A DNA stretch of 64,000 nt from Candidatus Saccharimonadota bacterium (GCA_017514975.1 JAFWIF010000014.1:52070-116069); one strand, 5' to 3'. Counted from the first letter of the stretch, positions 12,803-57,476 are shown. The notes: generated from the sequence alone by a model not told the origin. Translations and numbers: made by a program.

Positions 12803-15800
12803 CTACTGAGCGACGCAGCGGACGGAGAGGCCGTCAGCCCTGTGACCGTAGAAGTTTCGGGGGCCGACGTTGCTACTGCCGAAGTACAGGCTGGGGGCGT
12901 AGCTCGTACCATTTGCGGTAGAAGACCAGAAGAAGCCTTGGCTGCCCTGATAGTACTGCGAGCCAGTGTAGTAGTAGTAGCCTGAGAAGGGGAAGCTAAA
13001 CGGAACGTTTTGCATTGTCGTGCTGCCAGTACTTCCGTTTAAGGCGTAGGTCGTCGTCAGTAGATTGTAGTAGCTCTTCGTTCCTGTATTACTTGGTAGT
13101 TGCCAGCCCTTCGGACATATCGACTGGTCAGCCTCCTCGCCGCTTCCCATTGTCGCTAGCCCTGTTCCTGCCGTTGCCGTATACCAGTTGTAAAGGTTGC
13201 CATAGGTCGTAGCTCTATCCGCGTAAGTTGCATGTTGCGAGAAATCATACATATGCTTGATGTTGGTCGTGTTGCTAGAACCACCTTCATTCCACGCAGC
13301 TCCTGCTTTAGTTTGCGCTGCTGGCATCGTAAAGTTTTGGCTGACGTTTGAATCTTGTGGGGTGAGAACGAGCGGATTCGCTTCGGTAGAATTGTCTCCA
13401 AGGTCGAGGTTTTGCGTCATCCAGCAGTTTCCATCGGCAAGTTTGGAGACAGTGTAGCTTTTGTTGTCGCGGGGGTCGAGAAGAGTGGCGGTGGGAACAA
13501 GGGAAGCGTCCGTAGAGTGCGTGGTTGTAGTGGTACGAGCGGAGACCGAGGGGGTGGTTTCGGCAGCACAGATGGCCGAAGTCATCTCTTGCATGGTCGT
13601 AATGCCGCCAAAAGTCGGGCCGCGTGGAGTCCATGATTCACCTTGCATGGTTTTTTCGACGGTGAGTTTTTCCCAGGTCGGATAGAGCGTAACGTCCGCA
13701 GAAGGCATAATGAAGGAGTCGTTGTTAATGGTGAGATCGGTCGGCGATACGACATGCCAGCCAGCGAAGACATAGTCGGCGCCGACGCAGGTCGGAGTTT
13801 TTTCGATAGTAACAGTCGTGCCGACGACGTAATGGTTGCCACTTGGCATGTTGGCAATACTAGTACAGGCGTCTGAAGAGGAAATGGTGCCAAAGACTAC
13901 ACCTTTTAGAGAGAAGGAGGGAGGGAGAGCGTTACTTGGAGTGACGAGCTTCGTGGCGGCAAAACCAAAACCAGCGAGAAAAGAGAGCGCGAGAAGGCGA
14001 AAAATAAATTTGCGAGTTTTGTTTGCGGCGAAAGAGGTTTTCTTCGAGCAAGACGCAATAGAGATGGGATTTACTATTCGCTTCGGAGCGAAACGGGAGC
14101 GACGCAAGCTTTTCAAGTGACTCATCGCGAGCTTGGTCCACGAAAACTTCTTGGCGAAAAGGAAGAAAGAAAGGACAGCGCCAGCAAGGAGGCCGGAAGC
14201 GATGAAGGGGAAAATGTTAGTAAAAGCAGCGGTTGGTGGGGTGCTGTTTTTTGACCAAGTGGCGACGATTTGGTTATTTTCCTTATAGGCGGACGCTTGG
14301 GCGTCGGTAGCAGAGCTGCCATAATCGAGGACAGCGGTGCGCTGATCGGTAACAGCAGAAGTGTAATCTTGGGGCACGACGACAGTAAAGAGATTGGCGA
14401 CTCTACCACTACCGTCAACAGGAGAAACAGCGTAACTTGCATCAGATGCGGACATATTAATCGTGTATTTTGTATCAGTGGAGATATTGGAGAGAGTGAG
14501 TTGTTGGTTGTGCTTTAGGTAGACCATACAGATGCGCCCGTAAGTACAGGTGGTGGGGTTTACGAAAGAAATGTTCCCGTTCCCGTAGCGAATACTGCCC
14601 TGGTCAAGACCAGAAAGCGCATAGGTTTCACCTTCGATGCCGTCACTAAAGTCGAAGATATAACGAAAATATTCGGAGGTGTTAGCGAGGTCGCCTTGGA
14701 CGAGGCTTTTTAAGGTCAGAGTGGTCTTTGGCGGATCGGAGAATTTGATTTTTACGACAACATTGCCGCTCGGCATAACGAAAGAACCATTGCTGGTGGC
14801 GGAGTTGCCCTCAACGGTGGCACCTTGGACGGTGTAGCTGAGGAGTCGGTAGCCGTCGAACGTTGATTGAGGGAGAGGCGAAATGAGATTAACGATGGAT
14901 CCTGGAGCGTAGTTGGTTTCAGAAGGGAGCGCAAAGCTACTCGGCGCGCGACCGTCGAAGACATAGGAAACTTTGTAGATATCGGCTTTAGACCAGGTTC
15001 CTTCAAGAGTAAGGTTTTTTGTAGGCATAACGAGAGTGTTGTTGGAAATGGTGGCGTCAGTAGTAGTCCAGCCGTTAAAGACGTAGCCGTCGACAGGAGC
15101 GGGCGTGGGGAGCTGAACAGAGAGACCAGATTGAATGGTCTGGCTAGCGGGGAGCTTGGCGGAGACAGGGGCGTCGCCGGTATAGGAGTAATTAAGCGTA
15201 TAGTTATCCGATGAACTTTCATCGCCGATATAAGCGTGGACGGTTTCGGAGAAGAAAGTGCCGTTTTGGTTTGCGATGGTGGCGGTATTAAAGAAATCTT
15301 GGCGGCTGACGGTGGTGGGTAGAGTTGGAGTCTTGGTCTTGATTTCATATTTTACAGTACAAGTTTCGCTGAGACCGGTAAGCTTAATGGTAGCGACACG
15401 AGTCGAGGCGTCGTAGGTCTTGCTGAGGGTGCTTTGGTTAGAGCAGCCTAGAGCCTGCTCGGTACCAAAAGCGAGAAAGGTGAGACCGTCGGGGATTTTA
15501 TCAGTAACAACAACGAGTCCACTTGCGTCATTTGGATTCGAGAAAGTACCATAATCGACAGTAAGGTAGTAGTCGAGAGCAGAATTCTCCTCGAGTCGAG
15601 TACCGCTCGTAACGTCGCCGTAGGCGAAAGATTGGTTGTCTCTGGTATCTTTAAACAGAAATGCTAGAAACGAGCAGGCAAGAAGCACGAGCGAAGCAAA
15701 GACGACGCAGAAGAATTGTTTCTGCTTTTTTGTTCTTCTAAATACCCCCCCCCTAAACGGGGATTTGCTCAAGGAATTTTGCCGACGAGCTCGGCAAAAT

Positions 15801-15817: not shown

Positions 15818-15867
15818 GGTGGAGACTCCTTGTTTTCGTATGTTTATTTTGACCTAATTGTATGCTT

Positions 15868-15928
15868 ATAGTAGCAAAATTCGTAGATTCCGTCAATGCT
15901 TGACTTTTTTGAATTTTTGTGCTATAAT
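15868..15928. promoter_or_regulatory. Back-to-back divergent promoters (cassette copy 1)
   Basis: Minus strand: TTGACG (15896..15891), 17 nt, TACTAT (15873..15868), then leader AGGTCAAAATAAACA (15855..15841). Plus strand: TTGACT (15900..15905), 17 nt, TATAAT (15923..15928). Confidence 0.5.
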
Positions 15929-15934: not shown

Positions 15935-15971
15935 ATAGTAGTGTCTTTAGATTCCTGAAGGCGCGGTTTTT
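15935..15971 (+). ncRNA. Candidate short hairpin-terminated transcript (copy 1)
   Basis: A 10-bp stem GTGTCTTTAG-ATTC-CTGAAGGCGC is followed by GGTTTTTGG, starting about 7 nt after the plus-strand TATAAT. Confidence 0.25.
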
Positions 15972-15974
15972 GGA

Positions 15975-19470: not shown

Positions 19471-22224
19471 TTATTTTGATTGGCGCAATCTTTGCGCGAT
19501 CAGTACGACGCCGCCGAGACTCGTGACGGCTACAGCAATCGCGCCGAGAGCGGGCCAGGCCTTGGTTGAGACAGTGAGACCAGTTGGAGGCGGGGCGGCC
19601 TTGGTGTTCGTGAAAGCGATGGAAATATCCGAGCCTAGAGAATTTATCGTGTAGCGTCGGCCGTTGGTACTAGTTTGTCCGACTTTGTAGCTTGTTTCGT
19701 AGCCGTCAGGGGCATAATCTACTTCTTCGATTTCAATCTTTGAGCCAGCCGGGAGAGTAGTGAGCTGTTTAATATTGCGATGCTTGAGCGTGAAGGTATA
19801 ACTGCCATCGTTGTTAGAAGTAAAGCCTTCGAAATTTGAGAGGTCGACAAGGTCACCGCTTCCGCCGTCTTTGGTAACCTTTATTTTATAGGTGAAATCT
19901 TTTGAGGTGTTGGCGAGGTCGCCTTTGACGAAGTTAGAGATTTCGAGGCCGTATGAAGACTTTGAGTTGACAAAAGTGGAAGTAATGTCGCTGTCGCCGA
20001 TAACGCCATGATCGTTGGTTTTCGAGGTCAGAGTCCAGCCTGTTTTGTTTTCTTCGATAATTTCATATTCATAGCCTTGCGGAAGCTGCAAGGTCTTGGT
20101 ACCGTTTTGCGGCAAGGAGAATGAATAGTAGCCGTTCTCATCGGGCTGACCAAAGAAAGAAGAGAGGTCGTATGGTTTTCTGTAGAGTAAACTAGATACT
20201 CCCTCGTTTCCTTCCGCGCCGCACACGAGGCTTGGACTTCTCCAACCATTTGGGTTCTCATACCAATAGCCGTCATCAGAATACCACTCACCGTATCCGC
20301 CAGCGCTATACCATTTATACTCGTTGATGTTTTTGCCATTGATATTTAGATCTATGGTACGCTGTAGTCCATTGAGGTAATTCCACATATCTAAAGCTTT
20401 CTCGAAGTCATCAGAATCACGAGTCTTGCTCTCACCCCAAACCGAGCGTCTATGCCCGCTCGCGGCGTCTATTAGTCTACCGTTAATCTTGGTGGTAGCA
20501 TCCGTAAGTCTTACCGTTATATTATGAGTAGAGCCATCATCCCCTTGGGAGTAAATATATTCCTCAAAATACACACAACCATAATCAAATGCTCTAACTT
20601 TATAATTAAATTGATCGCTCGTATTTATGTCGGTTTCTTTCTTAATAGTAAGATTTTGTTTGGGTATCTCTTCGAATACAACATTAATAATATAGTCCTT
20701 TTGTATATTGCTTAGACTATATAGACGATTCGTCTCGACAGACACATCGATGCCGACTCCGTCGACGGTTAAGCTTTTTATTCTGTATCCTTCGTTGGGC
20801 CGATAATATATATTCTTTGAGGCTCCGTAGGCAACGGTCGTAGATTCGGTAATTGTGCCATTAACGGCACTCGTAGTTATGTTGTACTTTGGAACGATTA
20901 TATACGGGTCAGCCGCTGTGCCGGTGCCACCGTCGTAGGTTGTACCGGGCCTTAGAGAGATGACTGGACGTACGCCGAGCAGAGAATAGTAGCCTGCAAG
21001 GTGGGTCGCCCAATCGTTCGTCATGGCGCCGCCTGGATTAAGACTAGCAACTGATACATACCTAACGTTAGGCACAGTATAGTGGCTTGGCGACATCGAC
21101 CAATAGGGCTCGCCCGTGTCACGGGCAGTGTTATTATTTATCATACTCATCTCGCTGGCGGTCGCTAATCCTATGGGGTAAGTTAGTTTTGCTTTTGTGT
21201 TTTCGACAGAAAATTGATCGGTCAAGTTCGTACAGCTATAATCGTTTGTAATGCCCGTAAACGTAAAATATGACCAAGTTCCGTTAGGATTCCAACCGCC
21301 AGAGTTGGTATTTTTTGGAGAACGATCATTGCAATAAACAGCGTCCTCTAAAAAGGCTGTGTATCCGGTTAAGTTGTTTCTGTACCAGTTATCGACTACC
21401 GTCTTGATAGCGCTATTGTTCGTATTAACATTATCTGCATAGAGCATATCGTGAATAGCTTGCTCAATGGTCTTACCGCCACTAAGTTCGATATACCAAT
21501 CGCTTCGGTGATAGTATCTTACGGTCTCACAAGTACCAGTACCGTTATTGCAGCTATAGTGATGAGTATTGTCTATGTATACGTCAGTATCAATCAAGGT
21601 ATATACGCCATTAGAATATGCGACTCCATTGCCAGCTAAAGTTCCGCTGGCGGGCGCGCCATACTTGTCTGGATATTGAACATTATACATATAACCAGCA
21701 TTAGCCAACGATGGAGTGCTAGCATTAGATATCCAAGTTTTGTTAATAATGCCTCCATAGGGCATACTGCACGTGGCTGAAGACGTGGAGTTGCCATTAT
21801 AAAGAAGTTTTATGCCGCCAGTATCGGTCGTTCTTATCATCTGCCAACACTTGCCGGCAAACACAACATTCCATTTATCCAAAAGCTGCTTGCCCTGCGT
21901 TGTGTCGTTTTCGATTGGGGTCGTAAAGTAATAGATGTCTTTTGGGCCTGCGCCAGCTAAAGTATCGTTGTGTGCGCCAGTATATTTGGCGGCGAGACCA
22001 CCTGTTTCGGCTTCGTTTTTAATAACGTTATAGAGGAGATTTTCGGGTTCGCTTGTATTGCTTGATTCGGCATGAGAATGACGAGTTGCGAGGAGAATTG
22101 CGCCAGTGGCGACGACGAGAAGGACGGAGAAAAGCGAAAAGAAAAGAAGTTTGCGTTTTTTGGTAAAGTTGCTGCTTCTTCTATGTGATATTAACCCCCC
22201 CCCATTACGCAAAAAGATTCCCAT
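19471..22224 (-). CDS. Large surface protein: Cys-rich N-terminal domain, pilin-like Ig domains, PPTG-type C-terminal sorting signal
   Basis: Start moved to the ATG at 22224 because the track start (TTG at 22296) is the promoter -35 box. Signal anchor KKRKLLFFSLFSVLLVV; GDLANTSKDFTYKIKV; C-terminus PPPTGL plus TM plus RLRQSK. Confidence 0.7.
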   Translation of the reverse strand: MGIFLRNGGGLISHRRSSNFTKKRKLLFFSLFSVLLVVATGAILLATRHSHAESSNTSEPENLLYNVIKNEAETGGLAAKYTGAHNDTLAGAGPKDIYYFTTPIENDTTQGKQLLDKWNVVFAGKCWQMIRTTDTGGIKLLYNGNSTSSATCSMPYGGIINKTWISNASTPSLANAGYMYNVQYPDKYGAPASGTLAGNGVAYSNGVYTLIDTDVYIDNTHHYSCNNGTGTCETVRYYHRSDWYIELSGGKTIEQAIHDMLYADNVNTNNSAIKTVVDNWYRNNLTGYTAFLEDAVYCNDRSPKNTNSGGWNPNGTWSYFTFTGITNDYSCTNLTDQFSVENTKAKLTYPIGLATASEMSMINNNTARDTGEPYWSMSPSHYTVPNVRYVSVASLNPGGAMTNDWATHLAGYYSLLGVRPVISLRPGTTYDGGTGTAADPYIIVPKYNITTSAVNGTITESTTVAYGASKNIYYRPNEGYRIKSLTVDGVGIDVSVETNRLYSLSNIQKDYIINVVFEEIPKQNLTIKKETDINTSDQFNYKVRAFDYGCVYFEEYIYSQGDDGSTHNITVRLTDATTKINGRLIDAASGHRRSVWGESKTRDSDDFEKALDMWNYLNGLQRTIDLNINGKNINEYKWYSAGGYGEWYSDDGYWYENPNGWRSPSLVCGAEGNEGVSSLLYRKPYDLSSFFGQPDENGYYSFSLPQNGTKTLQLPQGYEYEIIEENKTGWTLTSKTNDHGVIGDSDITSTFVNSKSSYGLEISNFVKGDLANTSKDFTYKIKVTKDGGSGDLVDLSNFEGFTSNNDGSYTFTLKHRNIKQLTTLPAGSKIEIEEVDYAPDGYETSYKVGQTSTNGRRYTINSLGSDISIAFTNTKAAPPPTGLTVSTKAWPALGAIAVAVTSLGGVVLIAQRLRQSK
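22195..22203 (-). repeat. G9 homopolymer in the signal-peptide n-region; the frame is currently ON
   Basis: Nine C on the plus strand. It encodes GGG in MGIFLRNGGGLISH. Confidence 0.9.
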
Positions 22225-22267
22225 CTGTTTTTTCTTTCTTTGTTTATTTTGACCTAAGCTTGGTTTT

Positions 22268-22328
22268 AGGATAGCATAGAGTTTTGATTCCGTCAATGCT
22301 TGACATTTTTTAGTTTTTGTGATAGGAT
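22268..22328. promoter_or_regulatory. Back-to-back divergent promoters (cassette copy 2)
   Basis: Minus strand: TTGACG (22296..22291), 17 nt, TATCCT (22273..22268), leader AGGTCAAAATAAACA (22255..22241). Plus strand: TTGACA (22300..22305), 17 nt, TAGGAT (22323..22328). Confidence 0.5.
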
Positions 22329-22334
22329 AGAAAG

Positions 22335-22371
22335 ATGAATGCCTCGAGGCGACGAGAGGTGAGGGTTTTTT
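22335..22371 (+). ncRNA. Candidate short hairpin-terminated transcript (copy 2)
   Basis: AGAAAGATGAAT, then a GCCTC-10 nt-GAGGT stem, then GAGGGTTTTTT. Confidence 0.25.
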
Positions 22372-22421
22372 GATAGTTTGGTTGAGTTATATGCTTGGTG
22401 CGAAGAGCGTTTTTGCGGACT

Positions 22422-24940
22422 TTAAGCTTTGCGCCTAATGAGAAAGATGGCGGCGAGGAGGCCAGCAAGGCTTGAGCCGAGAATAATGAAGGGGAGCTTG
22501 AGGGCAGATTTTGAGTGATCGGAAGTTTTTGGGTTAGAGTCTAGGGATTTCGGAGTAGTAGCCTGACTGTGCTCTATAGTCGTGGTGTTTTTTGAATCTT
22601 CGGTGATTTCAGTGTTTTGTGTAGGATTGTCTACAGGTTTTTCTGCGGGGGATTGATCTTTTTGCCAGTTAGCAGTGAAAGTTTTGTCGCCAGTAGTGCC
22701 TTTGGGGATTTGAAGCTGCTTTTGAGGAGGAGAGTTTGGGTCATCAGCGTCAGTCCAGCCGAGAAAAGTGTAACCTGGGCGGGCAGGAGTAGCGAGAGTG
22801 ATAGTGTCGGATTCGATAGTGTAGACAGAAGGATTGTCGGGGGAGTTGGTGGCGGGGCTGGTTGGGCCGTCTGGGCTAGAGGAATCGTCAGGATTAGCGG
22901 GGGCGTCATTGAGATTGTAGGTGATTTGATAGTTGATGGTCTCCCAAGTTGGCGCAATGGTGAGGTTTGAGGTGACACTATCGTAGGACTTGTTCCAAGC
23001 TTTGAAGGTATAGCCGGTTTTGGTGGGGCTGACGGGAGGGGTGGCGGAGGAGCCATAGGGAATGGTTTCGGTTTTTAAGGCAGTGCTTTCGTCATCAGTG
23101 AAAGTAACGGTGAAGATACGTTTATTGGCGAGGAAAAGCTTGACCCCCTCGGTGTCGGAATTTGAGATGGTGAATTCGGGACTGATGAGAGCCTCTTGAT
23201 CCTGGTCGTAACATTGAGTAGCAGAGTTCGGGCAGGAGTCGGCGCTAGCGGAGAGAGAGTAGACGGAACTAGCGGGGGCGGTCTGGACAAGGCGATAGGT
23301 GCCAGTGCCGAGGTTTTGGAAATCTACCTGACCGTCGGAATTGGTTTGGCGAGAGAGAGGATTGCTGTCGTTTGGAGTATAATCCTGCCAAGTGATATCG
23401 TTGCCAGTTCCCTGTTTGAGCTGAAGCTTTAAGGTTGCGTTTTCGAGAAGACGCTTGGTGTCGCTATCCGAAACGAAGGCGGAGACGGAGAAAGTTGGAG
23501 GAGTAACGATAGCGCTAGGATCGATACTTTCGATAGTGACGGTACGAGTGCTTGGCTTTGATGACACGCCGTTACGGGTAATGACGGCGGTCGACTGGAA
23601 GGTGCGGTCCTCTAGAGCGGTACCATAATCGCAAGCAACGTACGCGGTGCTGTATGGGTTTTGCCCCAATGCGCTATTTTCGCCAAATGCAGAGAGGTAA
23701 GCTTGGACGAGGCGGCCGTAATCCTCGGCGTCGGCGTAGCCGTTATTGATGTGGTACTTTGCGGCCTTGTCTGCCCATGCTTCGGCGCTTTGTTGCGGAG
23801 TGTCGATCCCGACACGACCATGATAGATAATAAAAGTCATAGAATCGCCGTTATTATAGTAGCCGTATTGGCGCGGAGTCGCGGTAACTCGAGATTTAAA
23901 ATCGCTATACGATTCGTTAGATGTGGGCTTTATTTCTGTGTATTCGCCGGTGATGGTGGCATAGTTGTAGTTAGAGCTTGATAAAGTGAGGTCGTCTAGG
24001 TCGTAAACTATACGAGCAGACGCAATAATTGAGTGGATATTCATAGCGATTGCATCTTGGCAAGTAATCTCGATGTAAGTATCGGACGGCTCTGGAGAAT
24101 AGCTGTCCCCTTCAGACTCGAAAAGACTTTTTTCGATAGCGTGCGCAGTGCCATCGACGTAATAGTAGACCGCTCTGTTATTGGATTTGGTAGAGAGGTT
24201 ATAGCCGTTGTGTATAGAGAGAGGATTAAGCGTGCGTGGATTAACGAAAAAGTTGATTGAGGTTTCGGGCTGATTGTTGAGACGAATTTGAGTATAACGA
24301 AAATCGTTGTTGCCGATTGGATGGAGAGTGCTACCTGTGTTGATGTGGATATTCTGCGCGCCAGAGCGCCCAGCCATGTTTTCATTAAAGACAAAGCGGA
24401 TAAGTGGTTCGCCGTCCGGAAAGACAGTATAAGAACCGACAGTCGTGCCGGATTCGCCAATAACAGGAACGGCGCCCGAAGCGACTCGCGAGACACTGCC
24501 CTTAGTAGACTTCAGGGCGATATCTACAGTATCGTTGCCAGTGAAGGTGGCGCCGTGCTTTAGGGACAAGTCTAATACTAGGCTCAGCGCGGTAGCTTCG
24601 GAAGTATTAGACTTGACCGGATAGTCGTCGGGATTCGTGGAAGCGTTTTCGCCAAGGATAGTGCTGATTTCGCCATTGGTAGCGCCAGTTAAGGTGTAAC
24701 TTTTAAGGGTTACTTCTGCTTCGAGAGACTGAGCAGAAGTAGCCGGGGCTATTAAAGCTACGAAGGAGAAAGATAAGGTCAAAATTGAGATAATGAAGAA
24801 TGGTTGAAGTTTGCGGAGTTTGAGAAGAATGTGGGGAGTTTGGATTTTTGGCTTTCTCGAGAAGCCAGATACTATGGTGTTTAGTAGACTTTTATACCCC
24901 CCCCCATGGAGATTAATGCGGTGCGAAATAGAGAGAACAT
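22422..24940 (-). CDS. MSCRAMM-like adhesin, phase-variable and currently frameshifted (OFF) at a G9 tract
   Basis: AAGGAG plus the ATG at 24940 opens MFSLFRTALISMGGG and stops 5 codons after the tract. The large ORF 22422..24782 is in the +1 frame relative to that ATG. It contains a Cna-B/SpaA-like domain, two Listeria-Bacteroides repeats, and NPKT plus TM plus RRKA. Confidence 0.65.
24897..24905 (-). repeat. G9 homopolymer that puts the adhesin gene out of frame
   Basis: Nine C on the plus strand. There are 158 nt between the upstream ATG and the first codon of the long ORF, which is 2 mod 3, so G10 or G7 would restore the frame. Confidence 0.9.
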
Positions 24941-24992
24941 GGCGTGGAGACTCCTTTGTTTTTATTGTTTATTTTGACCTTGTTATTGTTTT

Positions 24993-25092
24993 AGAGTAGC
25001 AGAGTTCTTTGATTACGTCAATGCTTGATAATTTGTTAGATTATTTTATTATAATGGTTTTGCTTGACATTTTTGGGGTTTTGTGATACAAT
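24993..25092. promoter_or_regulatory. Divergent promoters (cassette copy 3, with a duplicated plus-strand -35 region)
   Basis: Minus strand: TTGACG (25021..25016), 17 nt, TACTCT (24998..24993), leader AGGTCAAAATAAACA (24980..24966). Plus strand: TTGACA (25064..25069), 17 nt, TACAAT (25087..25092). Confidence 0.5.
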
Positions 25093-25098
25093 AGAAGG

Positions 25099-25147
25099 AT
25101 GTAGCGCCTCGAGGGAGCGAGAGGCGTGGGGTTTTGGTGGTTTTCGG
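25099..25147 (+). ncRNA. Candidate short hairpin-terminated transcript (copy 3)
   Basis: AGAAGGATGTAG, then a CGCCTC-10 nt-GAGGCG stem, then TGGGGTTTTGGTGGTTTT. Confidence 0.3.
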
Positions 25148-25156
25148 AGGCAAAGT

Positions 25157-27451
25157 TTAGCGACGGCGTTTGATGAGTTTATAGCCGAGAATGATACAGG
25201 GAGAAGAGAACAGAGCGGTAAAGATGGGGCCGAAAGGTGAGGCGGCGATGGTTTTGGGATTATCGACGGTAGCTTCTGGGTTTTGCTGAGCAGGTGCGGG
25301 GTTTTGAGTTTCCGGAGAGTCGGTCGAGCTAGAGCTTGAGGTCAAGTCTTGGTCGGCGGGATCAGCAGGAGTATTAGGGTCGGCGTCGTCAGGATTAGTA
25401 ATTTCGCCTGGATTGACTGGATTATTGGGATTAGTTGTGTCGTCGACGGGAGCGACATCTGGGAGCGAAAGTACTGGCCATGATTTGGTTTGATTTTCGT
25501 CGATATTTTCCCACGAATCGTTGATGACCGCCTCTGATTGATCTTGGTTGGTTAGCTGAAGGTATAGGCTGATCTGGTCATTATCGAAACTGGCTCGGGG
25601 GACTGACAACTCTGTAATGACAACACCATCACTGTTCTGGTTAATGGATTTTGTGAGCGACAAGGTATTGCTCGTGATAGAATTTTTAGTCGATGTGATC
25701 GTATGGGTCTTATTGGCATCTTGTAGTTCAATGCGAACCTGATCGCCGTTTGTAAAATCTTGGTCGTAGTGCTCGATGAGAAAATAAACTTTTTCGTGAT
25801 CGACGCAAGTTTTTAGATGGGCCTGAGCCTGGCTTTTTGAGCCCACAAATAAGGATTGTTGGACGTTTGACCAGTCGGATGGGGAGCCGTCTACTACGGG
25901 AGCGCAAACGTCGACAGTGTATGAATGGTTGAGGTGGACTTTACGATAATTGATGGAGCGAGGGGAGCTGGAATTAGTGCTAGAACTGGAATCGGGATAG
26001 ACCGCAAGGAGATCGTCGGCGTCATCTAGCTCGATAGAACCCCACGAGCCACCTTCTAGGACGAGCTGGTGGCTTGACTGAGGGTCGCCAATAATGCCGG
26101 CATAGAACTTTCCTTGCGTATTATAGCTAACGACGACTTCGCCTGATGGAAATTGCTGAACGTAAGGCGCGGCACCTGGAGCGGAAAACTGACTGAAAGC
26201 TTGGGAGTCGCCGGAGTAATTGGCGCGATTGCGAGGATCGTTTATTGCAGGATTTTCGCGTAAGCTATTTTCGCGCAAATCGGCAAGACTAATCCCAGAA
26301 GCGTTCTTGAAATCATAATTTTGACTATAAGTCGAGGTCGAGATACTATAGCCGCTCGGAAGCTGATAATTATCAGTCAGAGACCACATTTCGAAAGCAT
26401 AGAGAATGCGGCCGTCGATAAGCTTGGTTGCAACTGGCATCTGGGCAGTATAATAATTGACGTCTGAATTGGCAGTTTCGCTAAAAAGCGTACCGGTATA
26501 ATGGTAGGCTAAAGCGGAGCCCTGAGTCCAAGTTTTGCCGTTGTCGCTCGAGACGATAACGCCAACAGCGCCAGTGTTGTGTTTTACTAACTCATTGCCG
26601 TTCGCGTCCTTGACGCTAGCGCGATTATTGTTAATACCATTAGAAAACGCCATGACGATTTCGTCGCCATTTAAGATAGCGTGAGGCTCCCAAGGAGTAG
26701 TATTGTCGTGATAGATAGTTTGACCAATATCGAAACTGTGGCCTGTGGGGGTGCCATCAGGATTGATTGAAGGTATTATTTCCCCGCTGTCAAAAATTAG
26801 TTTTCCGGTTGATTCGTTGAGCCGAGCGCGTTTCGCAACGAGGCCATTTAGTTCGACGTGTGTACTTAAATGATGGAATGAACGATAAGCTGCATATACA
26901 AGCAGCGAGCCATCTTTCAAAGGAAGAGCGTCGCAGTTTTGGAAGACGCGAAAATCACGGCCAACGGCATTTTCTTGTACAAGGCTTGGCGCATGGTAGG
27001 CAAAGGATTCCCAAATAATTTCTGGGGTTGTCCAGGTTTTTAGATCCTTACTGGTAGAGTATTGAATCACAGTACCGTTTGAGTTTGGGTAAATACCGGT
27101 CACGCTAGGTGATGATGGATAGTTCCCGGCGTGCCAAAATAAAATATAGGTATCGCCTAGTTTTTTTAGGCGAGGATATTGTTTGATCAGGCGTTCATTT
27201 TCGGGGGTATTATCGTATAGAGACGAGAACGGGAGATGCCCTAAAGAGCGAAAATCTGGCTCTAGATTGGCGTTAGTTGCAACCGTCGCCTTGGCTGAGG
27301 AGTCAAAATTTGAAGCAAACAAAAAACCAAGACTGCCGATAAATACAAAGACTAGAACCGCAAATATGGTTTTTGGGATTTTAGACTGGAGGGGCGTTCT
27401 TTTAGCAGACTTCCTCTTTAAAAAATCGAATTCGCCATGCAAGCATCGCAT
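25157..27451 (-). CDS. Surface-anchored BNR/Asp-box beta-propeller glycosidase (sialidase-like) with a CBM9-like module
   Basis: Asp-boxes STSKDLKTW and SSDNGKTW; C-terminal DGSPSDWSNV...HEKVYFLIEH; a P/D/T-rich linker; NPKT plus TM plus KRRR. Confidence 0.6.
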   Translation of the reverse strand: MRCLHGEFDFLKRKSAKRTPLQSKIPKTIFAVLVFVFIGSLGFLFASNFDSSAKATVATNANLEPDFRSLGHLPFSSLYDNTPENERLIKQYPRLKKLGDTYILFWHAGNYPSSPSVTGIYPNSNGTVIQYSTSKDLKTWTTPEIIWESFAYHAPSLVQENAVGRDFRVFQNCDALPLKDGSLLVYAAYRSFHHLSTHVELNGLVAKRARLNESTGKLIFDSGEIIPSINPDGTPTGHSFDIGQTIYHDNTTPWEPHAILNGDEIVMAFSNGINNNRASVKDANGNELVKHNTGAVGVIVSSDNGKTWTQGSALAYHYTGTLFSETANSDVNYYTAQMPVATKLIDGRILYAFEMWSLTDNYQLPSGYSISTSTYSQNYDFKNASGISLADLRENSLRENPAINDPRNRANYSGDSQAFSQFSAPGAAPYVQQFPSGEVVVSYNTQGKFYAGIIGDPQSSHQLVLEGGSWGSIELDDADDLLAVYPDSSSSTNSSSPRSINYRKVHLNHSYTVDVCAPVVDGSPSDWSNVQQSLFVGSKSQAQAHLKTCVDHEKVYFLIEHYDQDFTNGDQVRIELQDANKTHTITSTKNSITSNTLSLTKSINQNSDGVVITELSVPRASFDNDQISLYLQLTNQDQSEAVINDSWENIDENQTKSWPVLSLPDVAPVDDTTNPNNPVNPGEITNPDDADPNTPADPADQDLTSSSSSTDSPETQNPAPAQQNPEATVDNPKTIAASPFGPIFTALFSSPCIILGYKLIKRRR

Positions 27452-27504
27452 CGTTCTGTCCTTTTTTGATTCTTTGATGTTTATTTTGACCTTGTTATTG
27501 TTTT

Positions 27505-27533
27505 AGAGTAGCAGATTTTGAGGATTTCGTCAA
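27505..27533 (-). promoter_or_regulatory. Cassette copy 4 promoter (unidirectional)
   Basis: TTGACG (27533..27528), 17 nt, TACTCT (27510..27505), leader AGGTCAAAATAAACA (27492..27478). The TGA stop of the upstream 1622-aa gene lies inside the -35 box. Confidence 0.5.
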
Positions 27534-30500
27534 TGCTTATTTTTAGCAAATACTTTACTGGAAACATAGATTGCGCATAGAGTAAATGCGCCGAACGCAG
27601 CAAGCAAGATGAGCGGTTTTTGATCTAAGGATACGCCAGTTATAACGGTCTCACCTTTATTGTTTATATATGTAACGCTTTGGTCTTCTTCTAATGGCTG
27701 TTTGGTGATAGTATTTCCCGTCGTAGTATCCCTAATAACACCGCCAGCCGTCTTGGCGATCTGATAACTCTCAGTGTATTCGGTGTCCGTTTCTACGATT
27801 GTGTATTTATAACCTCTGACGATATTTTTTATAGTCGCCGCTTCGTTGTGTTTGAGCTTGATAGTTGAGCCGTTATCGATTTCGGAAGACGAGCCATTTT
27901 TTTCTACGGTAAGCTTTCCTTCTAAAGGAGTATCATCGTCGTAAACAGTAATGCGATATTCAAATTCCCTATTAACGTCTGCCAAGCTACCGGTCACTTT
28001 CTTTTTGATAGTTAAATTATGTTTTATTTTTTCGTTTTGAATGTTTAAGGCGACTTCTTTTGTGGTGTTATTTCTCGCAATCACTACGGTTTTGTCCTCT
28101 ATCGATTGGTAATTTGCGGGAACTGCTTCGTGGAGAATATAGCTTCCTGCGGGAAGGTGCTCAAATTTAGCTTGCCCTAAGGTATCGGTATTTTTAGTGA
28201 CATTAAGCTCTTCGCCTAAATCGGAAGTTCCAGACAAAGTAAAGCTTACTCCAGACATCGCCTCACTGGTGTCTTTGTCCGTTTTATTAATCGTTAAATC
28301 ACCGTACGCTTTTGTGTTTGTTCTGGCCTCTTCTATGATGGGCATATAGTCGACTGATATAGAGTGGTTTTTGTGGACATCGTCAAAGACTACTCTGACC
28401 TTCTTAGGATTAACGCTGTCTTTGGTAAAGGTATATGTCTTGCCGCCAAAGACATAAGTAGCTACGCCGTCGCTAAACGATAGATTTTTAAACATTACGG
28501 TAATTCCATCAATTGTGATTTTTTCGATCTCCCAACCGTCGTCCGGTACCATAGCTAAGGTGTTTGAGTCGCCTATACCCATAGACACATCGCGCCGAAT
28601 TGGGCTCATTGAGCAATTGTCGAGATAATCATAGGCTTCGATATATAAATCGCCGCCAGTACCATGCGCCTGTTGAAGCCGAACGTAAACCGACGAATCG
28701 AACAAAGTTGTGCCGACGTTTCTAAGGTCATTTACCGTTGAACTACCAGTCCACCTTAGCGTAGAGCCTTTGGAGTCTAGAAGAACGGCAAACCCAGTAT
28801 CAAACGTACCGTTGTCAGCTCTTTTGGTGGTATATCTTTTTCCGCTTCGAGCAGCATAAGCGGTAGCATCTTGAATGGTTGAAAAACCGTTTGAGTTGTT
28901 ATTGGTTCCACCTATTTTTTTGCCAGCTTCGTCTCTCGTGCTGTGGTATGTAAAAGCGCTAAAGCGTATGCCGTCAGCATTTGATCCGTTAAACCTTCTC
29001 TCTGCATCGATCGCCATATCGCGCCCAAATACATAACCCTCGTAAATACTGCCAGTCATGCTTGCGTGGTCATACTTTGGAATTACGGCGAAACTTTTAG
29101 AACCAGATACAATCTCCATGCCCTCTGCATATTCGATGCCACCAGATCTCCTTCCCCAAACATTTTCGGCGCTTGCCAAATCTAAATCTTTAGCGGAATA
29201 CGAGATAATACCATCGACGGGATTATTGTTTTTATCTACCACCTGGATAGTAAATGTCTTAGAATTTCCTATGGCGTTGCGCATCTTGAACGTACCGTTC
29301 GCGGAATCAGTGTTTTTGTTGCTAGCGCTTGGGCTAAAAACGTACTGAGGCCATCTCATGGTTTCTCTACCGCCATTGTTAAACTCTATCTGAATGCTGC
29401 TGTTGAGGCTATTCGCATTTTCTTGGACGACATAGGGGACATTTTCGAGTTTATCAGTCGCCGATTCCATGGTCATTTCGTTAACCGTAAACACTACATC
29501 TCCGATTGACCCATCCGGCAATACGGCAGCATCATAATAAACAATCTGATAAATATATCCGTCTACGTCGTTGGTGATAACATTTTGTCCAGCATGTTCG
29601 CCAGTCTTATAATATGAGACTTTGGTGTTTCCATATTCTACTACGCTATCGTCGTTGTGCTCGGCGTCCGTAGTCGCGGTATCACCGTTGTTGATTAGCG
29701 CCGCATAGCCCTCGTCTGTTAACTGGCCAAATTCAGGAGTACCATATGCTCCTGGAGCGCCCACGCCTTTTATGTACGATTTTAATGACCCTAAATACGC
29801 AATCATACCATTATCGTCTGCGCGGCCCGTATATATATCGTCAGAAATCTTAGCTCCATCGACCCCGATTTCGCTATCGCCTTTTTTAACTAAATGGAAG
29901 GGGCTATTTTCTGGAAAAATGAGCGAGGCATTATTGAATTTGATTTTATTGCTGTTAATAAATACGTTTCCATACGGAAGAATTTTGGCAAAATCGTTAG
30001 GGTCAGAATCTAGATCTGTATGCGGTGGGCTGTTTTCTTGGATGGACGATTTTGCGTTCCCTCCAATATATAAGCCGCCATCAAGCTTTTTCTCATAATA
30101 GCTCTTGATAGTAGAATATGTCCCACTGTCGCTATCGTAATCATAGTATACATAATTTTCGTTGTTGTTATAGACTGCGCAAGCATCTTGGTTAGTTACG
30201 GTAGAGGAGCCCTCGTCTAGCGAAGAGCCGGTTGCATTAAAATTGACATCGTAGACCACGTCATCGAGTTCGTACCCAGACGGAGCTTCAATTTCTTGGT
30301 AATGATAGGCGCCAAGAGGTAAATCTTTAATCGTGTACTCACCGTTACCGTCAGTAGTAAACTCTGACTCTACCGACTGTCCGTCTAGCGTTTCTCCCCA
30401 GAAACGATATTTGGCGTTAGGGAGGAGAGTGTTATCGGTCGCGTCGCGTTTAGTTAATTTTAAGCTTCCTTTGGCCAAGTTATCTTCCATAACAACGGCA

Positions 30501-32398
30501 TCAAATGTTTCGCTTTGCTCTGTGTAGTTTTGTTTTGCTTCTTCACCGAGCGTCTCGTATGCTTTTTTGCTAATGACATCTCCTGTCTCGTTGTGCTTAT
30601 AGGTTGTGCGCGTTATGGTTTGGCCGCCCGACGTTATCTCGCCGTTGGACACCGTAAAGCTAACAGGGTTGGCCAATTTATATCCTGTCGGAGCAATCTT
30701 TTCGGCAAATTGGTATGTACCATTTTCTAGGAATAATTCGTAATACCCATCCACCGAACGAAATGACGCTACCGGCATTCCGCCTTGATTGATAATCATC
30801 CATGCATCTTCCAAGAAGTCTCCAGACTCTTTATCTACTTTGGCGAATTTGTATCTTGGCTTTATTTTATTTTTCATAATTACGGTCTTGTCGTCAACCT
30901 CTCCTTCGCCAATATATAATTTGCCATCACGCACAGAAAACTCTATGTCCTGCGCACCGCGATAACCGTTTGGTGCAGAAATCTCGTGAAGCGTATAGGT
31001 ACCGTCGGAAAGAGGCAGTACGTGTCCGCTACCATCCGTTTTCCATTGCGATTCTAATGAATTCCCTTCTAGCACCCTCATCACAGCATTAGACAGCGGC
31101 TCGCCATTTTCGTCGGTTAATTTGATAGTAATATCTACGGGATCTTGCGCGTTGACAAAGACGTGGGTTTTATCGGCGCTAAGCGTTCCGCTAGCCACAG
31201 ATAATCCTTTATCGCCATCGATACTATAAACATGCCACCCTGATGATTGAACCTCCTTAATCTCATATTCAAAGCCACTTGGGATATCGATTGTTTGATG
31301 GTTTTCCGAATTAGACTCTAGTGTAAACGTATATTCATTGTTGCCGCTAGGCGTTAAACCTTGGCGAGATAGGTCGACATAAGTCGTTGTTTCTGCTTGT
31401 GTTTTCCAGGCTTTTACTTTAAAAGTAAAATCTTGATCATGAAAGCCGCCCTTAGTCTTTTTTTCTACGGTTATTTTTTTACCAACATATTCGTTAGTGA
31501 AAGTCTTGGGGATGTTAGCCTGAACCGATTCGACTCGTAAACCGTTCAGCTCTATATCGCCAGCCCCGCTTAATCCCACCTGATAAGAAGAATTAGTTTC
31601 CGTTCCATTAAAAGTATAAGTATAACTATAAGGCACCCATCCGTCAGATTTATTTATAGTAATTGTTTTTGAAAAGATAGCCTTGCTCTGGCCGCTATCC
31701 CAAATTCTGATAAGGGCTTTTGCGGAATTATACGTCGAATCGACTGGGATTCTGACGTAGCCACTCAACATATATTCATTGCCATTTTTGTATGGTAGCT
31801 GGTTTTGCCCCCAATCTTTATTTCCGGTTGTATTGTTTAAGACTCTAAATACCGTTTCTTCATCAGTCGGCGTATCATTTAAAGAAACGATGCTTCCCGT
31901 ACCATTTCCGCCAGACCTAAGCGACCATCCACCAATAGGCCAAGTGTATCCGCCTAGGTGGTCGGCGTTTGGATTATTTGTATTCTTTAGAATGTTTTCG
32001 GTTGCGACAATGTTACCGTTGGCATCTCTGCTTACTTTGACGCTTATGTCGTAGCTATTAGGTGTGGCCCGGTATAACGGGTTGTCGTCTTCGGTTATCT
32101 TATAATAGTATATCTTTCCGACATCGGCATTTTTAAAAACAATCTTGTCGAAAGGAATGTTTTCGCCAATATTGCTCGTAGTGGTATTGGCCGGCAGGGG
32201 CCCGCCATTTGTACTACTAATGGTAAAATCGAACATGCCGTCTTCTAGGGTCTGACCGGTTAAGGCCTTGTTTAATGTTGGAGCCCACTCGACAGAAGTA
32301 GTACTAGCTCTAGCTTCAGAAGCGCCAAAAATGAAGCTGTTACACAACGCCAACAGCATGATAGCCAGACAGGCAAACCATGCTTTTTTATTCGCCAT
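27530..32398 (-). CDS. Giant (about 1622 aa) adhesin/pilin-like protein with isopeptide-type Ig domains, a CBM-like module and a large uncharacterised core
   Basis: AGGAGG lies 9 nt before the ATG at 32398. Signal peptide ...FGASEARA. FctA/Spy0128-like segment (GMFDFTISS...GKIYYYKITE), several SpaA/Cna-B-like repeats (GTYTLHEISAPNGY, GAYHYQEIEAPSGY, GSYILHEAVPANY). C-terminus VITGV plus TM plus KNKH. Confidence 0.7.
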   Translation of the reverse strand: MANKKAWFACLAIMLLALCNSFIFGASEARASTTSVEWAPTLNKALTGQTLEDGMFDFTISSTNGGPLPANTTTSNIGENIPFDKIVFKNADVGKIYYYKITEDDNPLYRATPNSYDISVKVSRDANGNIVATENILKNTNNPNADHLGGYTWPIGGWSLRSGGNGTGSIVSLNDTPTDEETVFRVLNNTTGNKDWGQNQLPYKNGNEYMLSGYVRIPVDSTYNSAKALIRIWDSGQSKAIFSKTITINKSDGWVPYSYTYTFNGTETNSSYQVGLSGAGDIELNGLRVESVQANIPKTFTNEYVGKKITVEKKTKGGFHDQDFTFKVKAWKTQAETTTYVDLSRQGLTPSGNNEYTFTLESNSENHQTIDIPSGFEYEIKEVQSSGWHVYSIDGDKGLSVASGTLSADKTHVFVNAQDPVDITIKLTDENGEPLSNAVMRVLEGNSLESQWKTDGSGHVLPLSDGTYTLHEISAPNGYRGAQDIEFSVRDGKLYIGEGEVDDKTVIMKNKIKPRYKFAKVDKESGDFLEDAWMIINQGGMPVASFRSVDGYYELFLENGTYQFAEKIAPTGYKLANPVSFTVSNGEITSGGQTITRTTYKHNETGDVISKKAYETLGEEAKQNYTEQSETFDAVVMEDNLAKGSLKLTKRDATDNTLLPNAKYRFWGETLDGQSVESEFTTDGNGEYTIKDLPLGAYHYQEIEAPSGYELDDVVYDVNFNATGSSLDEGSSTVTNQDACAVYNNNENYVYYDYDSDSGTYSTIKSYYEKKLDGGLYIGGNAKSSIQENSPPHTDLDSDPNDFAKILPYGNVFINSNKIKFNNASLIFPENSPFHLVKKGDSEIGVDGAKISDDIYTGRADDNGMIAYLGSLKSYIKGVGAPGAYGTPEFGQLTDEGYAALINNGDTATTDAEHNDDSVVEYGNTKVSYYKTGEHAGQNVITNDVDGYIYQIVYYDAAVLPDGSIGDVVFTVNEMTMESATDKLENVPYVVQENANSLNSSIQIEFNNGGRETMRWPQYVFSPSASNKNTDSANGTFKMRNAIGNSKTFTIQVVDKNNNPVDGIISYSAKDLDLASAENVWGRRSGGIEYAEGMEIVSGSKSFAVIPKYDHASMTGSIYEGYVFGRDMAIDAERRFNGSNADGIRFSAFTYHSTRDEAGKKIGGTNNNSNGFSTIQDATAYAARSGKRYTTKRADNGTFDTGFAVLLDSKGSTLRWTGSSTVNDLRNVGTTLFDSSVYVRLQQAHGTGGDLYIEAYDYLDNCSMSPIRRDVSMGIGDSNTLAMVPDDGWEIEKITIDGITVMFKNLSFSDGVATYVFGGKTYTFTKDSVNPKKVRVVFDDVHKNHSISVDYMPIIEEARTNTKAYGDLTINKTDKDTSEAMSGVSFTLSGTSDLGEELNVTKNTDTLGQAKFEHLPAGSYILHEAVPANYQSIEDKTVVIARNNTTKEVALNIQNEKIKHNLTIKKKVTGSLADVNREFEYRITVYDDDTPLEGKLTVEKNGSSSEIDNGSTIKLKHNEAATIKNIVRGYKYTIVETDTEYTESYQIAKTAGGVIRDTTTGNTITKQPLEEDQSVTYINNKGETVITGVSLDQKPLILLAAFGAFTLCAIYVSSKVFAKNKH

Positions 32399-32995: not shown

Positions 32996-33046
32996 AAGTT
33001 TGACTCCTTTTGTGTTTGTTTTGATCGCAGTTCTTGGGTTAGTTTT

Positions 33047-33075
33047 AGGTTACCAGACTATCGCTATTCCGTCAA
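33047..33075 (-). promoter_or_regulatory. Cassette copy 5 promoter (degenerate leader)
   Basis: TTGACG (33075..33070), 17 nt, TAACCT (33052..33047). The leader is the related CGATCAAAACAAACA. Confidence 0.4.
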
Positions 33076-33109
33076 CGCTTTTAGCGTCGAATCTTGGACC
33101 GGCAAAAGA

Positions 33110-42139: not shown

Positions 42140-42181
42140 CCAACCAAAACTCTGCGTCTTCAGAGTCTGAAGGCGCTACAT
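42140..42181 (-). ncRNA. Candidate short hairpin-terminated transcript (copy 4)
   Basis: The minus strand reads AGAAGTATGTAG-GCGCCTTCAG-ACT-CTGAAGACGC-AGAGTTTTGGTTGG and starts about 7 nt after the minus-strand TATAAT. Confidence 0.3.
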
Positions 42182-42187: not shown

Positions 42188-42248
42188 ATTATAGCACAAA
42201 ATCTAAAAAATATCAAGCATTGACGGTATCCTCAAAAACTGCTTAAAT
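42188..42248. promoter_or_regulatory. Back-to-back divergent promoters (cassette copy 6, plus-strand gene)
   Basis: Plus strand: TTGACG (42220..42225), 17 nt, TTAAAT (42243..42248), leader AGGTCAAAATAAA (42260..42272). Minus strand: TTGATA (42216..42211), 17 nt, TATAAT (42193..42188). Confidence 0.5.
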
Positions 42249-42298
42249 AAAATTACAATAGGTCAAAATAAAAAATACAAAAATACAAGGAAACATCT

Positions 42299-52043: not shown

Positions 52044-52703
52044 GTGAGAGTACTCTATGTAGAAGATGCAACTTTCCTAGCTGAGGCCGTAAAGCACAAT
52101 TTGGAAAAAGAAGGAATTACGGTCGATTTAGCTAGTGACGGCGAAGATGGTCTAGAAAAGGCGGTTGATGATATTTACGACTGTGTTGTTTTAGATATTA
52201 TGCTGCCAAAGCTATCGGGCACAGATATCCTGTTGCGCATGCGTGAAAAGAAAATTCAGACGCCAGTTATTATGCTCTCTGCGCTGTCGGAAGTTGAAAC
52301 GAAAGTCGAACATTTAGATCACGGCGCCGATGATTATTTAGCTAAGCCATTCAAGACCGCTGAGCTAGTAGCAAGAATTAAAGCTCTAATTCGTCGCCCG
52401 AAAAATATCGACAGTTCTACTCTTTCGTATGGAGATTTGGTGCTTGATAAAAACAGCGCCACGCTAAACGGCGAACAATTAACTGCCAAGGAAACCGAAA
52501 TTATCGAGGTGTTCATGAAGGCACCAGAAACGTTGGTCAACAAGGAGCACTTACTCGCAAAAGTCTGGGGCGAAGATGGTCTAGGCGAGGACAACTACAT
52601 TGAAACTTACGTTTCGAGACTACGCAAATTACTCAAGAAGGCACATAGCAAAACCAAAATCGTGACGATTCGCGGATTGGGTTACAAGATGACGGATAAA
52701 TAA
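52044..52703 (+). CDS. OmpR/PhoB-family response regulator
   Basis: GAAGGAG plus a GTG start. Receiver VVLDIMLPKLSG, and a winged-helix C-terminus IRGLGYKM. Confidence 0.85.
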   Translation: MRVLYVEDATFLAEAVKHNLEKEGITVDLASDGEDGLEKAVDDIYDCVVLDIMLPKLSGTDILLRMREKKIQTPVIMLSALSEVETKVEHLDHGADDYLAKPFKTAELVARIKALIRRPKNIDSSTLSYGDLVLDKNSATLNGEQLTAKETEIIEVFMKAPETLVNKEHLLAKVWGEDGLGEDNYIETYVSRLRKLLKKAHSKTKIVTIRGLGYKMTDK

Positions 52704-52705
52704 AA

Positions 52706-56610: not shown

Positions 56611-56781
56611 GAACATCTCTCCACGCTTCCAAAACGCTTATGCTTAGTGTTTTCGAACTGATGTAATAACTTCAAGTTAATTGCAGTGCAGAGTTCTGCG
56701 CCTTTCTCCAGCGAGAGGGGGTAGCCCCTCATATTTTATGCGCAGATTCTACATAAAGGCTTATAGCTTTGCTGGAGCCGT

Positions 56782-56990: not shown

Positions 56991-57458
56991 ATGTACAAAA
57001 AAGAATTCATGGAAATCGCAGTAGATGAAGCAAAGGACGGCATCCTCAATCATGATGGCGGACCCTTTGGCGCGGTAATAGTAAGAGATGGCGAAGTAAT
57101 TGCGTCGGGGCACAACCGAGTGCTTTCTTTCAACGATTCGACTTGCCATGGCGAAATTGACGCAATACGAAAAGCGGAGAGTAAACTTGGAACTTATGAC
57201 CTCTCGGGCTGCGAGCTTTATACTACAGGGGAGCCTTGCCCGATGTGCCTTGCAGCAATTTTATGGGCAAATGTCGAAAAGGTATATTATGGATGTAGGC
57301 TGAGCGATAATGAAGAAATTGGATTTCGCGATGCTAAGTTTGATAAGATGATGGGCGGAAGATCCAACTTGTCTGAAGGCTTTATGGAAGAAAAAGACCG
57401 AGACCTATGCCTCAGCATATTTGAAGAATACAAAAAAATGGAAGCAAAAAGGTACTAA
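56991..57458 (+). CDS. CMP/dCMP-type zinc deaminase (guanine deaminase/TadA-like nucleoside deaminase)
   Basis: CHGEIDAIRKA (HxE) and EPCPMCLAAI (PCxxC) zinc motifs. Confidence 0.8.
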   Translation: MYKKEFMEIAVDEAKDGILNHDGGPFGAVIVRDGEVIASGHNRVLSFNDSTCHGEIDAIRKAESKLGTYDLSGCELYTTGEPCPMCLAAILWANVEKVYYGCRLSDNEEIGFRDAKFDKMMGGRSNLSEGFMEEKDRDLCLSIFEEYKKMEAKRY

Positions 57459-57476
57459 TAAAAATAAGCGCCCCGC

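Follow-up and report, generated by a model that had tools for sequence, protein, structure and literature searches.

The 64-kb stretch of DNA analysed here (the window) raises the question of why several large surface-protein genes, otherwise unrelated in their coding sequences, are preceded by one and the same promoter and leader, and of what a short invariant box in that leader would do. The window has a GC content of 44.7% and belongs to the genome of an uncultured rumen Candidatus Saccharibacteria (TM7). Its TruB protein is 100% identical to an NCBI Candidatus Saccharibacteria protein and is found on ENA scaffold XIEF21-1_SAMN15830024; TruB proteins of the next relatives are only ~70% identical to it. 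The same strain (100% identity) is present in further sequencing runs, including SRR31077494 and SRR12529289.

Two motifs, the 10-mer AGCATTGACG and the leader box AGGTCAAAATAAA(C/A)A, each have five exact occurrences in the window and are always paired, and each pair lies upstream of a gene for a large secreted or anchored protein. The exact matches to AGCATTGACG are at 15891, 22291, 25016 and 27528 on the minus strand and at 42216 on the plus strand, with a one-mismatch copy at 33070 (minus strand), and those to AGGTCAAAATAAAMA are at 15841, 22241, 24966 and 27478 (minus) and 42260 (plus). With up to two mismatches allowed, AGGTCAAAATAAAMA had eight matches against 0.54 expected, a number reached in none of 100 shuffles. 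Both motifs were found where the earlier note had described a cassette common to five large surface-protein genes, with a degenerate copy at the gene for a small membrane protein. The copies, named below after the start of the gene that follows, consist of the following features.

15868..15896, minus strand: promoter facing the 1004-aa gene (15817), TTGACG-17-TACTAT with TGC extension
15841..15855, minus strand: leader box of the 15817 copy, from the motif match
22268..22296, minus strand: promoter facing the 917-aa gene (ATG 22224), TTGACG-17-TATCCT with TGC
22241..22255, minus strand: leader box of the 22224 copy, from the motif match
24993..25021, minus strand: gene-facing promoter of the 24940 copy, TTGACG, 17-nt spacer with final TGC, TACTCT
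24966..24980, minus strand: leader box AGGTCAAAATAAACA of the 24940 copy, at about +7 to +21 from the predicted start A
27505..27533, minus strand: promoter facing the 764-aa gene (27451), TTGACG-17-TACTCT, without the upstream module described below
27478..27492, minus strand: leader box of the 27451 copy, from the motif match
42220..42248, plus strand: promoter facing the 1183-aa GH43/GDSL gene (42299), TTGACG-17-TTAAAT with TGC
42260..42274, plus strand: leader box variant AGGTCAAAATAAAAA of the 42299 copy, 12 nt past the −10
33013..33079, minus strand: degenerate copy before the 85-aa membrane-protein gene (ATG 32995), AGCGTTGACG, TGG-TAACCT, 20-nt gap, GATCAAAACAAACA

Dissection of the six copies with regular expressions gave a common order of 10-mer, 14 nt, TGn, hexamer, gap, box, 16-26 nt and ATG. 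In all six a −35 element TTGACG is followed by a spacer of exactly 17 nt, as had been claimed, with TGn at its end (extended −10). The −10 hexamers are TACTAT, TATCCT, TACTCT, TACTCT, TTAAAT and TAACCT in the 15817, 22224, 24940, 27451, 42299 and degenerate copies, respectively, so that the form TAnnnT previously given for all of them fits five and is not that of TTAAAT. The gap between hexamer and box, put earlier at about 15-20 nt, is in fact 13 nt in four copies, 12 nt in the 42299 copy and 20 nt in the degenerate copy, and the distance from box to ATG is variable (16 to 26 nt). An A occupies the 7th position past the hexamer in 6/6 copies. Transcription most likely starts at this A, which would place the box at about +7 to +21.

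The cassette is restricted to these genes. A search of the window with a profile of the five full copies recovered the five themselves (E 4e-14 to 4e-18), the degenerate copy (E 2e-4) and nothing else, and no further copy was present in the 13.3 kb of the same genome beyond the window ends, giving a searched scope of 77 kb. The pattern TTGAY-N14-16-TGnTAnnnT occurs 12 times in the whole window, and ten of these occurrences are cassette promoters; the eleventh (27474, plus strand) merely coincides in part with a box read on its complementary strand, and the twelfth is at an unrelated place.

As judged by their sequence, the gene-facing promoters are of the sigma-70 extended −10 (TGn) kind. The copies have a −35 element near TTGACA (TTGACG), a spacer within 16-18 bp (17 bp), TG at −15/−14, a −10 with A2 and T6 (TAnnnT, one hexamer being TTAAAT) and an A at the expected start. 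In a generic sigma-70 scan two of them pass at 9/12 with TG, and the TACTCT copies fall under the 4-of-6 rule of the scan. Unlike the TGTGnTAnAAT of other genes in this genome, their −10 hexamers hold C at positions 3-5 (TACTCT, TATCCT). This departure from the usual form suggests that the gene-facing promoter may be weaker or factor-dependent.

In an alignment of the five full copies from −35 to ATG (92 columns), 41 columns are invariant, with one run of 13 (the box) and one of 11 (AAGCATTGACG), all remaining runs being no longer than 4. A run of at least 13 was reached in 0.04% of column shuffles, in keeping with the earlier remark that the box is conserved better than the surrounding UTR, and both runs jointly were reached in 0 of 100,000. 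The −10 hexamer and the 13 nt up to the box vary freely (mean pairwise identity 0.55-0.68). Within this interval, four of the five copies have substitutions but no indels, which indicates a constraint on spacing. The degenerate copy has kept the same blocks while its remainder has diverged, and it retains 12/14 box positions despite 7 nt gained in the leader.

Best local matches between the upstream regions show 72-93% identity (74-90% over 49-151 nt among the five full copies), whereas the first 600 nt of the six coding sequences share only matches of up to 19 nt with E of at least 0.004, hence no significant nucleotide similarity. Similar upstream regions before dissimilar coding sequences point to reuse of a promoter and leader and not to duplication of whole genes; on this sequence comparison, the five genes and the decayed sixth copy are a case of promoter reuse. 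The earlier view of a promoter-leader cassette that is common to surface-protein genes and not due to simple duplication is upheld, and the reading of its box as a protein or sRNA binding site drew no support from RNA structure, Rfam matches or cross-species conservation. All copies are paralogous, come from one genome of one strain and lie at most 27 kb from each other, and the block-wise conservation could thus partly reflect patchy gene conversion. The 27451 and 24940 copies are identical over 38 nt, from TCTGCTAC through the end of the box, which indicates some gene conversion or recent copying.

Logan short-read contigs of this organism (L028, L030 and L032) break off inside cassettes, in the 38-nt stretch common to the 24940 and 27451 copies. 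The cassette repeat fragments assemblies, and cassette genes may consequently be split or under-represented in MAGs. A 68-nt repeat unrelated to the cassette is also present in the window, in two copies 91% identical to each other (56778-56845 and 57473-57540, plus strand, with 3' end TGGTATAAT), one upstream and one just downstream of a gene (56991..57458) for a cytidine-deaminase-like protein, and may represent a second case of a reused promoter. At the end of the window, 60037-63525 together with positions 4150-7259 of contig L023 encode a YobI-like P-loop NTPase (990 aa) and, after it, a 154-aa protein and the methylase and specificity subunit of a type I restriction-modification system, a possible defence island.

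Four copies (15817, 22224, 24940 and 42299) include a further module, absent from the earlier note, upstream of the gene-facing promoter. It is conserved among them (E 6e-21 to 8e-24), is absent from the 27451 and degenerate copies, and comprises a predicted promoter facing away from the gene and a hairpin.

15900..15928, plus strand: opposite-facing promoter of the 15817 copy, TTGACT-17-TATAAT, 11/12 plus TG
15941..15973, plus strand: hairpin of the 15817 copy, 10 pairs plus TTTTT, −12.6 kcal/mol against −1.4 on the gene strand
22300..22328, plus strand: opposite-facing promoter of the 22224 copy, TTGACA-17-TAGGAT, TGTGA extension
22330..22371, plus strand: hairpin and U-run of the 22224 copy, from folding
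25064..25092, plus strand: opposite-facing promoter of the 24940 copy, TTGACA-17-TACAAT, TGTGA extension
25096..25135, plus strand: hairpin and U-run of the 24940 copy, with the promoters on one side and the 764-aa gene's stop (25157) on the other
42188..42216, minus strand: opposite-facing promoter of the 42299 copy, TTGATA-17-TATAAT, 11/12 plus TG
42154..42176, both strands: hairpin after truB in the 42299 copy, −15.2 and −15.9 kcal/mol, with a U-run only on the minus strand

The opposite-facing sites, all of which carry the TG extension, are the top sigma-70 matches of their regions (11/12 for three of them and 10/12 for one), and are more canonical, and by sequence stronger, than the gene-facing promoters. 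Three of the four contain an exact TGTGnTAnAAT, which is also found upstream of a tRNA, of the adhesin gene and of one other gene in the window, and the fourth reads TGTGATAGGAT. All four resemble the TTGACA-N14-TGTGATATAAT sites of a related Saccharibacteria contig, where two such sites closely precede called genes. In the related contig (L014, 12617-12645, minus strand), a perfect TTGACA-17-TATAAT with TGTGA extension also points into the 3' end of a gene for an ABC ATPase, in antisense orientation, and canonical promoters without a gene of their own may be frequent in this lineage.

The −35 hexamers of the two promoters stand back to back, 3 bp apart, and form a palindrome GTCAA-GCA-TTGAC, as in the 15817 copy. 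Only in the 24940 copy are they separated, by a 39-bp A/T-rich insertion (25022-25063) with TCAAGCA direct repeats at its flanks, and the full TCAAGCA is retained at both promoters. A further antisense promoter, starting from TTGACC on the reverse strand of the box, was considered and rejected, the corresponding −10 (TAGCAA/TAGCAG) being without the final T in 4/5 copies and only the 22224 copy scoring 9/12.

The hairpin begins ~10 nt past the predicted start of the opposite-facing promoter. Three of the four hairpins fold better on the opposite strand than on the gene strand (−12.6 against −1.4, −11.6 against −4.8 and −16.6 against −9.6 kcal/mol); for the fourth the values are −15.9 and −15.2 kcal/mol, and in all four the U-run is on the opposite strand only. 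Most of the tandem genes are thus parted by terminator-like hairpins that look weak in the gene direction. The earlier impression that there are no terminators between the tandem genes applies only to the junction of the giant adhesin gene with the 27451 copy, since hairpins are present upstream of the 15817, 22224, 24940 and 42299 copies. The product of the opposite-facing promoter would be an RNA of ~40 nt. Such predicted RNAs belong to no known family, and their complementarity to the leaders is no better than that of shuffled sequences.

The genes downstream of the full cassettes are 2.3-3.5 kb long, and the degenerate copy precedes the gene for the 85-aa membrane protein. Pfam domains in the cassette proteins, of adhesin or hydrolase type, are InlB B-repeat/Flg_new, SpaA, DUF7601, Fib_succ_major, GH43 and GDSL. 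The proteins have hydrophobic N-terminal segments, and several have a C-terminal NPKT, a membrane helix and a basic tail. The C-termini encoded by 22422-24782, 25157-27451 and 42299-45850 consist of (S/D)NPKT, then a hydrophobic helix and last an RRR/RRKA tail, and are closer to a sortase-B-type sorting signal than to LPXTG; no sortase gene was found in the window. The 1004-aa ORF (12803-15817, minus strand) has a membrane helix and a basic stretch in mid-protein, followed by a second signal-peptide-like segment (MSHLKSLRRSRF...), and may represent two former genes fused in frame or a processed protein.

The neighbouring giant adhesin gene (27530..32398, 1622/1624 aa), with SpaA, DUF7601 and FctA domains, lacks the cassette, as had been noted. 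It has a different promoter of its own (TTGCGT-18-TAAAAT with TGTGC extension) and no box. Its TGA stop (27530-27532) does lie inside the TTGACG of the promoter of the 27451 copy.

Three cassette genes share a second feature that the earlier note does not mention. Runs of at least eight G occur in the 64-kb window only as three G9 tracts (six overlapping matches against 0.18 expected), and each tract is found no more than 75 nt into a cassette gene.

15745..15753, minus strand: G9 tract of the 1004-aa gene, codons 22-25, in frame
22195..22203, minus strand: G9 tract of the 917-aa gene, codons 8-10, in frame
24897..24905, minus strand: G9 tract of the 24940 gene, 35 nt into the frame from ATG 24940

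For the gene previously taken to start at 24940, the cassette is in place, but G9 puts this ATG out of frame with the 786-aa ORF (22422..24782). The frame from ATG 24940 reaches a stop after 19 codons, and a tract of G10 or G7 would join it to the ORF. The tracts look like sites of slipped-strand phase variation that would switch the genes individually. Slipped-strand mispairing at homopolymers underlies the contingency loci of Neisseria, Haemophilus, Campylobacter and Helicobacter, and the tracts resemble these in being G9 runs early in the coding sequences of surface-protein genes, with both in-frame and out-of-frame states. Length polymorphism, which defines contingency loci, is absent here in three assemblies: G9 was found at both readable tracts in the window, SRR31077494 and SRR12529289, all of them consensus assemblies of one strain. 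No N-terminal length variants are on record in the protein clusters, in which fragment P0126 spans the C-terminus only. In the literature on phase variation in Saccharibacteria, no report of homopolymer switching in this phylum was found, and the G9 tracts, if confirmed by read-level data, would be the first hint of contingency-type switching in it.

Beyond this genome, the cassette was not found. The pattern GCATTGACG-N35-60-GGTCAAAATAAA gave 12 single matches in unrelated phyla among 185,579 species-representative genomes, near a rough chance estimate of ~7, and a looser cassette pattern gave eight single matches and no related cassette in JGI metagenomes. Of these only L016 gave a score, a weak one, and its site lies upstream of a radical-SAM-methyltransferase-like protein on a non-Saccharibacteria contig. 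In a relative with a 72% identical TruB, truB is followed by prfB, with neither a surface gene nor a cassette there, and the 764-aa protein has its nearest homologue (35% identity) on a Firmicutes/Mollicutes-like contig of 25% GC, again without a cassette. A search with the anchor module gave six distant matches, the best of them on a contig with an arginine-biosynthesis operon. The motif search suggested in the earlier note for defining a regulon in this genome and its relatives has yielded only the cassette copies within 77 kb, and no copy in other genomes. No report of such a module was found in the literature on Saccharibacteria promoters and transcription start sites.

The account that we favour, and in which we place about as much belief as doubt, is that of a reused sigma-70 extended −10 promoter-leader module with a promoter-anchored cis element, probably an operator. 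A short leader, rich in A and without structure, and an extended −10 promoter (AAGCATTGACG, 14 nt, TGn, TAnnnT) have come to stand before five otherwise unrelated genes. The box AGGTCAAAATAAA, at about +7 to +21, would fall within the DNA covered by RNA polymerase at the promoter. Given the fixed distance from −10 to box and the variable distance from box to ATG, the box appears to be read in register with the promoter, and an element acting at the DNA level or anchored to the transcription start is favoured over a translation element. For the box taken by itself, an operator within the polymerase footprint is tentatively preferred, at somewhat less than even confidence. As an operator for one shared regulator, it would allow the whole set of surface proteins to be turned up or down together. 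The opposite-facing promoter would probably compete with or tune the gene-facing one, the hairpin would shield the upstream gene from antisense transcription, and slippage at G9 would switch three genes individually. Unlike many operators, the box is neither palindromic nor repeated, and nothing connects it with the one regulatory system encoded nearby, an OmpR-type two-component pair at 52044-53662 whose regulator is at 52044-52703.

In a more elaborate and rather improbable form of the operator reading, the box and the palindromic −35 block would both be sites of a dedicated regulator, and the opposite-facing promoter and terminator would be part of the switch, either as a competitor for RNA polymerase or as a generator of tiny RNAs.

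A less likely alternative, to which we would give perhaps half the weight of a simple operator, is that the box acts in the mRNA, where, as a linear motif without structure at 7-21 nt from the 5' end, it would bind a protein or small RNA, protect that end from 5'-to-3' decay or enhance ribosome loading. The box does belong to the part of the leader predicted to be transcribed, the lack of structure in the A-rich leaders would keep the motif accessible, a fixed distance from the transcription start would equally suit a process that depends on the 5' end, and a homologue of RNase J is encoded in the window (38436-40565). However, the box stands at varying distances (16-26 nt) from the Shine-Dalgarno sequence and start codon, which argues against an element of translation initiation, and pairing of the leaders with locally encoded short RNAs is no better than that of shuffled sequences. 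Nor is there a conserved fold. Five of the six leaders have folding z-scores of +0.45 to +1.44, and the 15817 copy has −1.70 (13/200 shuffles fold at least as well). At gathering score, Rfam models matched only four tRNAs in the window, and nothing at E≤1 was found in 22150-27700, which holds three cassettes.

It is also conceivable, if improbable, that the box serves no independent function, the cassette being young or homogenised and its invariant runs being conversion tracts. This would account for the 38 nt, box included, that are identical in the 24940 and 27451 copies, and is in line with the confinement of all copies to 27 kb of one genome and with the want of an orthologous copy in another species. 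Against it, two blocks are invariant in 5/5 copies, with differences at about half of the positions that separate them. The degenerate copy, which is the oldest, has held on to most of the box though its leader was lengthened, and indels between −10 and box are missing from all but one of the five full copies.

Still less probable is a role as a promoter-proximal pause or loading site, at which the box would recruit a processivity factor for transcription of very long genes to their ends, by analogy with ops/RfaH or lambda Q. The zone from +7 to +21 is that of sigma-dependent pausing, the box contains a −10-like CAAAAT, and in their length and surface-protein products the genes resemble known targets of such factors. 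Yet the box is not similar in sequence to ops, the window showed no NusG paralogue, and the longest gene (the 1622-aa adhesin) has no box whereas a copy precedes a gene of 85 aa.

The vsp, vpma and vsa recombination loci of Mycoplasma are typified by a short invariant sequence that all family members carry in the 5' UTR. The conserved 5' sequence might likewise be a site-specific recombination site that shuffles promoters, or the opposite-facing promoter might lie on an invertible segment, as one copy is inverted relative to the others and a strong promoter faces away from the genes. This very improbable reading is largely refuted: no recombinase or integrase gene or domain was found in the scanned ORFs of the window or flanks, each gene is served by a separate promoter, recombination would delete the four copies that are in direct orientation, the only symmetry is the mirror symmetry of the two promoters and not that of consistent flanking inverted repeats, and the arrangement is identical in three independent assemblies. 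An invertible promoter switch was likewise rejected, no consistent inverted repeats flanking the promoter in the four copies, and so was a promoter-bearing MITE of the Correia type, no terminal inverted repeats being present at the ends of the repeated unit.

Scarcely credible, finally, is a CtsR-type operator, as in the tandem heptads RGTCAAA-NAN-RGTCAAA of Firmicutes: the first 7 nt of the box (GGTCAAA) correspond to a CtsR heptad and the ATA that follows fits the NAN spacer, but the second heptad is absent, no cassette box is within three mismatches of the tandem consensus, no such site lies upstream of the ClpC-like gene, and no CtsR-family protein is encoded among the window ORFs.

The closest described kind of element is the putative mobile promoter, a form of promoter reuse in which highly similar upstream sequences occur in one genome before dissimilar coding sequences and without a known mobile element, the threshold being at least 80% identity over at least 50 nt within −150..−50 of the start codon (PMC3575422). 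Conservation of mobile promoters may reflect regulatory content beyond the core promoter (PMC3575422; Matus-Garcia, Nijveen and van Passel 2012). The coding sequences behind the cassette are, likewise, non-paralogous at the nucleotide level, and no known mobile element accompanies the cassette. Within −150..−50 the best pairs of copies show 87% identity over 47 nt and 78% over 79 nt, and within a relaxed window of −200..−1, the only one in which the threshold is reached, they show 90% over 61 nt (24940/27451) and 80% over 75 nt (22224/24940). Unlike putative mobile promoters, the cassette is similar block by block, serves genes of one functional class, is bidirectional and has an invariant box past the start site.

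In the vlp, vsp and vpma families of Mycoplasma and the opa family of Neisseria, a near-identical promoter and 5' UTR are shared by a variable surface-protein family with switchable simple-sequence tracts, and the signal peptide and often the protein body are homologous too. The cassette similarly provides surface-protein genes with a common 5' region, and simple-sequence tracts accompany it. It differs in that the coding regions are unrelated at the nucleotide level, no signal peptides are shared and no recombinase is present, and in that the tract is a poly-G inside the coding sequence at which no variation was observed. The feature is real and non-random, and most of its earlier description holds. 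As the evidence stands, the cassette is an instance of promoter reuse in one strain, marked by two further details, namely the invariant box just past the predicted start and a canonical promoter that would fire into a terminator.

Saccharibacteria live attached to host bacteria, and surface proteins are obvious candidates for roles in this attachment and in feeding. To our knowledge, almost nothing is known about gene regulation in these genome-reduced bacteria. As a mark of a set of adhesin and glycoside-hydrolase genes, the module delimits a candidate regulon. Its 15-nt box could serve as bait in finding the regulator, and its native promoter and leader could be used in genetic tools. If the reading with a dedicated regulator were true, this control and poly-G slippage would make up two layers, one collective and one for each gene, in an epibiotic, genome-reduced CPR bacterium.
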